Source of the DNA: Escherichia phage Turkey5
Sequence record: PQ471516.1
Length of the DNA stretch: 64,000 bases
Strand: one strand, 5' to 3'
Of the stretch, positions 31,421 to 31,923 are shown piece by piece. Below the pieces are notes generated by a model. That model was not told the origin of the DNA and did no database searches. It saw only the letters and a program-made list of their open reading frames with translations. The translations under genes were made by a program, and so were the position numbers. Every line of letters starts with the position of its first letter. Positions within the stretch are counted from its first letter, which is position 1.

Positions 31421-31446
31421 AAAAGGGAGCCTTAGCTCCCTTTTTT
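31421..31446. terminator. Bidirectional rho-independent terminator (GGGAGC-CTTA-GCTCCC + T-run)
   Basis: Inverted repeat 31425-31430/31435-31440 with A-run before and T-run after, between convergent genes. Confidence 0.55.
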
Positions 31447-31923
31447 CACATGCAACATATTTAATTTACCTTCCTTGATAAGCTTCCTAGCTTGCTTTAC
31501 ACGAACAGCATTGTTAGCACCAGGGATGATATCATACTCTTCCAGAATAGCGTTCTGTTGGGCTGCTGGGAGCCTTTTAAACTTACCTACATCAACTGCT
31601 AAAGCAGTGTGGTGTATAATCTGTTCCTCTTCAGGGATGCTATTATTTTTCTCTAAATAGTCTGCAAGATTACGCAGTACTTCGTATAGGGGTTTATCAG
31701 TTAAGTGCTTCATGTAGCGATTAAAGCTATTCTGAACCTTTCCTTCCCATGCGTTCACTTCATTCTGGAGTACTTCACGACAGTGTTGATTCTCGAAGTG
31801 ATAGTGATCCAGTACTGGTTTAGTGATAGTTTCTTTGATGATAGGATCTATACCTTTTTGTTTTTTAAGTAATTCATTTCGATAGTTTGCAGCGTCTTTA
31901 CTATCTTTCAATCTTCGTTTCAT
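31432..31923 (-). CDS. Hypothetical protein; possible His-Me-finger nuclease (endonuclease VII-like), weak
   Basis: 163 aa, RBS GAGGGG, late-promoter-like CATAAATA upstream; segment LDHYHFENQH reminiscent of endo VII/HNH core but lacks the Zn-binding cysteines. Confidence 0.3.
   Translation of the reverse strand: MKRRLKDSKDAANYRNELLKKQKGIDPIIKETITKPVLDHYHFENQHCREVLQNEVNAWEGKVQNSFNRYMKHLTDKPLYEVLRNLADYLEKNNSIPEEEQIIHHTALAVDVGKFKRLPAAQQNAILEEYDIIPGANNAVRVKQARKLIKEGKLNMLHVKKGS

Follow-up and report, generated by a model that had tools for sequence, protein, structure and literature searches.

Whether a nuclease can still belong to the endonuclease VII family once the zinc-binding cysteines of that family are gone is the question raised by a small gene of Escherichia phage Turkey5, which lies on the minus strand of the 64,000-nucleotide stretch of sequence record PQ471516.1 analysed here (the window). 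The structural zinc of endonuclease VII, the textbook phage Holliday-junction resolvase, is usually treated as both defining and essential. An earlier note, made from the letters of the window alone, had pointed to an endonuclease VII-like histidine cluster in the 163-amino-acid (aa) product and to the absence of the four zinc cysteines, leaving a choice between a divergent resolvase and an unrelated protein. We find by profile comparison and structure prediction that the 163-aa protein is confirmed as a true, well-conserved relative of T4 endonuclease VII. The best explanation of the locus as a whole, to which we would give a probability of roughly 85%, is a structure-specific His-Me-finger nuclease of the T4 gp49 type that would be expressed late and debranch DNA without a Cys4 zinc site. 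The gene itself is an orthologue of an already annotated gene; what is new is a large natural class that lacks the zinc cysteines.

Relationship to T4 endonuclease VII

The segments of the gene on which the comparison turns are:

31432..31923 (-), coding sequence (CDS) of the 163-aa endonuclease VII homologue (T4 gp49-like), supported by an ATG-to-TAA open reading frame (ORF), PHROG 423, the PDB profile, hhalign, AlphaFold2 (AF2)/Foldseek and the ratio of nonsynonymous to synonymous substitution rates (dN/dS)
31741..31812 (-), His-Me finger (beta-beta-alpha-Me) core, residues L38-G61, located by hhalign and HMMER alignments
31837..31860 (-), former first zinc knuckle, residues Q22-I29 (QKGIDPII, against QNGKCLIC in T4), located in the alignments

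In a PHROG scan, residues 2-147 of the protein align with positions 2-152 of the 159-position profile of PHROG 423, 'endonuclease VII', at E = 6.7e-33, a match that is far beyond chance and bears out the endonuclease VII-like character of the histidine cluster, residues 38-47 (LDHYHFENQH). T4 gp49, whose query sequence is 157/157 identical to PDB 1e7d/1en7, matches the same PHROG along its full length with E = 5.4e-61. A family profile of 56 homologues, the alignment of which was also used for the AF2 model, recovers the T4 endonuclease VII chains (1e7d/1en7) as its sole matches in the PDB (E = 8.4e-7), and hhalign reports 95% probability against T4 endonuclease VII over 113 columns, residues 18-134 aligning with T4 residues 15-135. 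An NCBIfam scan of the 163-aa protein gave no meaningful match.

The AF2 model has a mean predicted local distance difference test score (pLDDT) of 93.3 and contains a helix at residues 8-21, strands at 36-41 and 47-53, and helices at 54-74, 79-94, 105-116, 120-129 and 138-150. This predicted fold has the endonuclease VII plan of an N-terminal beta-beta-alpha-Me domain, a long helix 2 and a C-terminal helical domain, and the His-Me-finger arrangement is seen within it, with H40 and H42 on strand 1 and N57 on helix 54-74. A Foldseek search of the PDB with the model returned three matches at E <= 1e-3, all of them T4 endonuclease VII (1e7l, 2qnf and 1en7; template modelling (TM) scores 0.55-0.70 over ~157 columns), the best being 1e7l_A (E = 2.2e-6, TM 0.67/0.70, 157 columns), and the other PDB matches all had E > 0.2. 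Because the profile, hhalign and fold matches span the whole protein, the homology predicted from sequence and model is full length, reaching beyond the histidine cluster to include the C-terminal helical domain. Similarity to a His-Me-finger nuclease was thus found by PHROG, PDB family profile, hhalign and fold alike, which settles the choice left by the earlier note in favour of a divergent resolvase over an unrelated protein. The extended monomer model is, in addition, compatible with a domain-swapped homodimer.

The residues that are shared with T4 endonuclease VII at the active site and beyond it are:

D39, equivalent to T4 D40
H40, equivalent to T4 H41
H42, equivalent to T4 H43
R49, equivalent to T4 R54
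N57, equivalent to T4 N62
E60, equivalent to T4 E65
G61, equivalent to T4 G66
E81, equivalent to T4 E86
H104, equivalent to T4 H105

A search of 5.8 billion proteins supplied 120 homologues, all 55-100% identical to the window protein and for the most part encoded on contigs of ~350 kb, and residues D26, D39, H40, H42, R49, N57, E60 and G61 are invariant in all 120. The start methionine of the 163-aa ORF is common to 72 of them, and the stop-to-stop frame reaches just 7 codons upstream of the ATG. With a dN/dS of 0.08 against the orthologue in the jumbo phage 121Q, the ORF can be taken as a functional protein-coding gene under strong purifying selection.

Comparison with T4 endonuclease VII itself (gp49; PDB 1en7, 1e7d, 2qnc; PF02945; PHROG 423) thus shows proteins of similar length (163 aa against 157 aa in T4), with the same order of secondary-structure elements and the same predicted fold (TM 0.67-0.70), the same D, H, H, R, N and E residues, and E81 and H104 aligned with T4 E86 and H105. 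T4 gene 49 has a late promoter, and a putative late-type promoter box precedes the window gene. T4 is moreover a related myovirus, and the window phage too has homologues of gp46/47, UvsX, UvsY and UvsW. The differences are an identity of only ~20-27%, the replacement of the four zinc cysteines, and the deletion of 4 residues at each of two sites, namely the stretch that links the first knuckle to the DH motif and the loop of the beta-hairpin. The genomic position also differs, the window gene adjoining gp46/47 and a baseplate hub gene, whereas T4 gene 49 is located near nrdD/pin.

Loss of the zinc site and its distribution

The CX2C...CX2C zinc motif of T4 is absent from the window protein and likewise from its 120 homologues. 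The whole 163-aa protein contains one cysteine, C48, and a Cys4 zinc site is therefore impossible. The four T4 ligands are replaced as follows, in agreement with the earlier note's observation that they are missing:

D26, in place of T4 zinc ligand C23
I29, in place of T4 zinc ligand C26
Q53, in place of T4 zinc ligand C58
V56, in place of T4 zinc ligand C61

At the first knuckle, D26 is accompanied by P27 in 119 of the 120 homologues, and the model is confidently predicted here, with a pLDDT of 98 over residues 21-30. Position 29 is I, T or L, position 53 is Q, D or E, and position 56 is V, or C in 19 of the 120 homologues. To judge from the alignments, then, the window protein keeps the DHHRN chemistry and does so without the structural zinc site on which T4 endonuclease VII depends. 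An Asx-Pro turn, together with hydrogen-bonding and hydrophobic residues, appears to stand where T4 has its CxxC knuckle. The first knuckle would have become an invariant Asp-Pro turn (D26-P27-x-I/T) and the second cysteine pair would have given way to Q/D/E53 and V/C56, so that the fold is presumably stabilised by hydrogen bonds and hydrophobic packing in place of zinc, and the folded protein would be zinc-independent. Zinc and zinc-less pairs are familiar elsewhere, as in the adenylate kinase lid (Cys4 versus a His/Ser/Asp/Thr hydrogen-bond network), the 'zincless finger' of NEIL1, and the C+/C- ribosomal proteins. In these cases too a Cys4 set is exchanged for polar or hydrophobic residues with fold and function kept; their folds are unrelated to that of endonuclease VII, and the parallel is one of analogy only.

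The Cys-less state extends far beyond the immediate family. An exhaustive profile search of 1.84 billion cluster representatives yielded 621 relatives at E <= 1e-3, and cysteine classes were counted in the best 150 of these 621 (representatives of clusters at 50% identity). An Asp occupies the first ligand position in 81 of the 150, typically in the pattern D-P-x-T ... D/H/Q ... V/S/T; 55 retain the first cysteine alone, and only 11 retain three or four. Within the Asp class, 23 of 81 representatives have no cysteine at all in the N-terminal domain. The D, H, H, R and N residues are near-universal in the 150 distant representatives, across all cysteine classes. Among the nearest sequence relatives, the Cys-less state is thus, by these counts, the majority condition and no oddity. 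A tblastn search matched 357 cultured-phage records, and the cluster members of ten distant representatives are metagenomic entries throughout. Three genes from cultured phages illustrate the range:

L054 314-919, endonuclease VII of Vequintavirus slur12 (CUL03124), Cys-less, with D-P-I-L ... S..T
L056 404-766, endonuclease VII of Ralstonia podovirus RsoP1IDN (RsoP1IDN_16), Cys-less, with S-P-I-T ... Q..E
L055 401-814, gp21 of podophage K1E, with cysteines kept (CPIC...CRGC)

Since the Vequintavirus and Ralstonia podovirus proteins also lack the cysteines, the Cys-less state is evidently spread over several unrelated phage groups. The slur12 and RsoP1IDN proteins follow the same substitution logic at the former zinc site; they differ from the window protein in length and at the C-terminus, the identity of 40-50% being confined to the N-terminal domain. 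The Rak2-like genes annotated as 'DNA endonuclease VII' (121Q gene 594, and those of PBECO4, CBB as CBB_248, XaC1 and pEa_SNUABM_50) are orthologues with 59-88% identity that share synteny, Cys-less motif and ATAAATA box with the window gene and show no substantial difference from it.

The Cys-less variant is therefore widespread and routinely annotated as endonuclease VII. Searches of the literature for an endonuclease VII without zinc brought up nothing but papers on the Fpg/Nei/NEIL 'endonuclease VIII' enzymes, and as far as these searches reach the variant has been neither commented on nor characterised. We think it likely that the window protein is one member of a large, naturally zinc-free endonuclease VII lineage, in which an Asp-Pro turn and a hydrogen-bond/hydrophobic network took the place of the Cys4 knuckles that the T4 enzyme requires for folding and DNA binding, and that the zinc-free form may be the commoner one among phages. 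A Cys-less lineage with the full catalytic set and fold shows that evolution can do without the zinc site, and it offers a ready system for learning how protein-only interactions replace a metal knuckle.

Several points weigh against an active, zinc-free nuclease of the T4 gp49 type. The protein scores 17.3 bits against Pfam PF02945 (E = 0.0045), below the gathering threshold of 23.6, and a single-sequence phmmer search of the PDB gives noise alone (E > 1) and does not reach T4 endonuclease VII. AlphaFold omits metals and the dimer, and the model is thus silent on what stabilises the former zinc site; some 80% of the phage genes are without known function, and another resolvase could hide among them. 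In T4, the C23S and C61S substitutions each give a protein with neither activity nor DNA binding (Giraud-Panis et al. 1995, in the summary given in PMC6083498), so that loss of the zinc site is not trivially tolerated. The PF02945 shortfall is as expected for a model built around cysteine motifs. Only 30 of the 56 family members match that model at E < 0.01, which suggests that Cys-centred models of the Pfam style under-call endonuclease VII, the window protein and 26 of its 56 relatives failing to match PF02945 or barely doing so.

The behaviour of the T4 mutants would also favour a catalytically dead remnant of endonuclease VII that serves merely in branched-DNA binding or as a packaging accessory, which we consider the least probable of the alternatives; all catalytic residues are invariant in the 120 homologues, dN/dS is 0.08, and D39, H40, H42, N57 and E60 would not be expected to stay unchanged in such a remnant. 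The protein might instead be not truly zinc-less, a structural metal still being bound through other ligands (D26, H47/C48, or H73/H104/H105 of the same or the partner subunit). Within the Rak2-like family D26 is invariant, C48 is present in 118 of 120 homologues and H73, H104 and H105 vary little or not at all; further afield, His or Asp frequently stands at the T4 C58 position, and the first-position cysteine is kept in the 55 of 150 noted above. In the wider Cys-less classes, however, C48, H47, H73 and H105 are not conserved (position 48 is mostly V, C or I, position 73 is H, W or Y, and position 105 is mostly Pro), for which reason an alternative metal site made of these four residues was rejected. 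Moreover, the 23 Asp-class representatives have no N-terminal-domain cysteine to offer, H104 corresponds to T4 H105 and is present in zinc enzymes too, hence not compensatory, and neither I29 nor V56 is able to ligate a metal. We regard a site of this kind as unlikely, though the least unlikely of the alternatives.

The DHHRN motif serves resolvases, homing endonucleases and restriction endonucleases alike (Fang et al. 2018, PMC6083498), and several free-standing HNH and GIY-YIG endonucleases are present in these jumbo phages, so that a sequence- or site-specific nuclease in the manner of F-CphI or Hpy99I, for example a homing endonuclease, could be envisaged in place of a junction resolvase. 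The DHHRN family of F-CphI and Hpy99I indeed has the same D-H-H-R-N set on a beta-beta-alpha-Me scaffold, and it is described with flanking CX2-4C and CX2C zinc motifs that the window protein does not have (Fang et al. 2018, PMC6083498). F-CphI shares the catalytic domain alone, and both it and Hpy99I lack the C-terminal/dimerisation architecture of endonuclease VII, whereas the window protein keeps it, being homologous to T4 endonuclease VII from end to end, including the two parts that form the dimer and DNA-binding surface in T4, helix 2 and the C-terminal helical domain. The gene is also a single-copy syntenic core gene, unlike the patchily distributed homing endonucleases. A site-specific nuclease is accordingly very improbable, and the zinc-free relative of T4 gp49 is the reading that we carry forward.

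Putative late promoter, gene neighbourhood and probable role in the phage

The signals around the gene are:

31961..31954 (-), late-promoter-like box CATAAATA, 30 nt ahead of the ATG, with core ATAAATA
31935..31928 (-), Shine-Dalgarno sequence AAGAGGGG, 4 nt ahead of the ATG, read from the sequence
31421..31444, GC-rich hairpin AAAAGGGAGC-CTTA-GCTCCCTTTT between the convergent gp46-like and endonuclease VII genes, from a terminator scan

For the strict T4 octamer TATAAATA there is no enrichment, the window containing 6 copies where 6.4 would be expected. The 7-mer core ATAAATA, by comparison, occurs 19 times on the two strands, and 15 of the 19 copies lie 12-75 nt upstream of the start of a same-strand ORF, a zone that makes up 2.35% of strand positions; the ORFs behind these positioned copies are mostly structural genes. 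Examples, which have a variable base before the core, are:

34467, 39736, 40398, 41608, 44886 and 58312 (+), ATAAATA
33828, 27312, 21406 and 20430 (-), ATAAATA

Upstream of the endonuclease VII gene the box is held at -37 to -40 in the orthologues of 121Q, JNE01, Vibrio phage 2.275.O and one metagenomic relative, in flanks that have diverged, and the 121Q version is TATAAATA. An ATAAATA late motif has been published for the Rak2-like phages CBB and GAP32 (Buttimer et al. 2017, PMC5259590). Motif enrichment, orthologue conservation and the published motif together support ATAAATA as a late-promoter-like motif of this phage and its clade, to which the CATAAATA box would belong; the late-type box proposed in the earlier note has held up in this respect, and late expression of the endonuclease VII gene is, on sequence evidence, a well-supported prediction, in keeping with the gp55-like late sigma factor gene at 27352-28239. 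At the other end of the gene, the stop codon falls within the hairpin at 31421-31444, which is common to both convergent genes and looks terminator-like.

A megablast search with window positions 29000-34500 identifies Escherichia phage vB_EcoM_JNE01 as the closest relative (98.8% identity, 100% query coverage); its genome is 355,583 bp and it is a member of the genus Asteriusvirus of Rak2-like jumbo phages, to which the phage of the window belongs as well. The same search gives ~79-82% identity to 121Q, PBECO4, phAPEC6 and other Rak2-like jumbo phages. Neighbouring genes were named by PHROG scans:

27352-28239, gp55-like late sigma factor
28226-29257, SbcD/gp47-like nuclease subunit
29267-31414, SbcC/gp46-like subunit
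32947-33783 (-), baseplate hub protein
34507-36738, virion structural protein
36749-38485, portal protein

The endonuclease VII gene is thus convergent with the gp46/gp47 (SbcCD-like) genes and lies near the gp55-like sigma factor, baseplate hub and portal genes. It is a single-copy core gene with fixed synteny in Rak2-like phages of Escherichia, Klebsiella, Erwinia, Xanthomonas and Vibrio, at 55-100% identity, and the order sigma factor - gp47 - gp46 with a convergent endonuclease VII gene is still found in Vibrio phage 2.275.O and in metagenomic relatives.

No enzyme for junction resolution or debranching other than endonuclease VII can be recognised for this ~350-kb genome. Six-frame translations of the whole 121Q genome and of the window, searched with endonuclease VII hidden Markov models and phmmer, contain no second, cysteine-bearing endonuclease VII, the orthologue alone being matched, and neither RuvC nor RusA nor any other resolvase appears in the complete annotation of 121Q. 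T4 endonuclease VII-like resolvases occur in jumbo phage subgroup 2.2 and in part of group 4, in a distribution nearly complementary to that of RuvC (Iyer et al. 2021, PMC7824862), and a lone endonuclease VII without RuvC in 121Q agrees with this pattern. Buttimer et al. 2017 (PMC5259590) name CBB_248, the orthologue in CBB, alongside the gp46/47 homologues CBB_246 and CBB_267, and associate it with mismatch repair as well as with recombination and packaging. Because it is the sole recognised resolvase, conforms to the published jumbo-phage pattern and sits in a conserved gp46/47 neighbourhood, the protein most likely has the function of T4 gp49, which would be to resolve or debranch recombination and replication intermediates before headful packaging.

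We propose that the gene would be expressed late from its ATAAATA-type promoter, read by the gp55-like sigma factor of the phage. The product, by homology most likely a homodimer, would recognise branched or mismatched DNA, four-way junctions among it, and nick two strands beside the branch point. D39 and N57 would hold a divalent metal, H40 and H42 would act as the catalytic histidines, and R49 and E60 would also lie in the active site. Debranching of the recombination-dependent replication network in this manner would allow the ~350-kb genome to be packaged.

We note that JNE01 labels its endonuclease VII orthologue 'hypothetical protein', a label that could be replaced by 'endonuclease VII (zinc-less type)'.

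A structured RNA element beside the gene

An ORF-poor stretch upstream of the endonuclease VII gene is more conserved relative to 121Q than the coding DNA that flanks it, with identities of 96-100% at 32051-32250 and 86-96% up to 32650, compared with 72-88% in the flanks. A blastn search finds the element in 71 phage records, all Rak2-like, most of which have it at 4-5 sites in the genome; the four copies of 121Q, at 326.6, 247.5, 192.8 and 90.3 kb, are all in unannotated gaps. Its parts in the window are:

32038-32046 (+), extended -10 box, TGnTATAAT
32077-32088 (+), 5' covarying GNRA hairpin
32107-32469 (+), core helices of the RNA
32478-32493 (+), terminator-like hairpin of the RNA
to 32552 (+), conserved RNA tail

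Nineteen distinct copies from viral contigs of ~350-370 kb were aligned, and RNAalifold predicts from them 84 pairs in 17 helices, 45 of the pairs having compensatory double changes. Paired cells reach 96.5%, compared with 82% in shuffles and 40-45% with slid partners, and the covariation score is 0.419, compared with at most 0.075 for slid partners; none of 500 shuffles attains the observed values. As to the strand, minimum-free-energy z-scores (-3.5 and -3.3) do not discriminate, but invariant G-U pairs favour plus, canonical pairs amounting to 96.5% when the alignment is read on the plus strand and 86.4% on the minus strand, and the promoter points the same way. In 18 of the 19 copies a perfect extended -10 promoter, TGnTATAAT, precedes the first conserved helix by 50-75 nt, which implies transcription of the RNA by the host sigma-70 polymerase, probably early in infection. 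For the window copy, the start is predicted at ~32053 and the 3' end at ~32500 or ~32552.

A scan against Rfam 15 (E <= 1) found no match for the element, which contains no tRNA or tmRNA, and none of 185,579 species genomes of bacteria and archaea has its signature. Metagenome contigs do have the signature, and the longer ones among them measure ~350-370 kb. No publication describing the element was found, and the GenBank record of UE-S1 annotates a 'repeat_region' at its position. Four abundant long non-coding RNAs have been defined by RNA sequencing in the related jumbo phage PA5oct (PMC7318152), and three of these loci show no detectable similarity to a partial covariance model of the element. 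We conclude that this ORF-free element of ~460-500 nt is probably a new large phage non-coding RNA family and probably the more novel of the two findings reported here; if confirmed, it would represent a new large structured RNA family specific to jumbo phages.

The divergent arrangement of the endonuclease VII gene and the RNA is kept in relatives down to 59% endonuclease VII identity. A covariance model search found the RNA absent from the endonuclease VII locus of Vibrio phage 2.275.O, where a 566-aa gene with a faint ResIII helicase signature occupies the RNA position (L010 4207-5907). Functional coupling of the RNA to the nuclease is possible, and much less likely than the zinc-free lineage proposed above.

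In 121Q-like genomes, two free-standing HNH endonuclease genes lie within ~1 kb of two of the four RNA copies (121Q genes 170, at 91320-92108, and 513, at 246019-246630). An association between the RNA and HNH genes was considered and dropped because it holds in 121Q-like genomes alone and does not extend to other genera; these genes are probably incidental homing-endonuclease insertions beside a conserved sequence. Two small JNE01 CDSs annotated as 'hypothetical protein', WOL22777 and WOL22778, which separate the endonuclease VII gene from the following gene in that record, correspond to window positions 31957-32088 (-) and 32524-32637 (+) and overlap the promoter region and the structured RNA; both are probably spurious calls.

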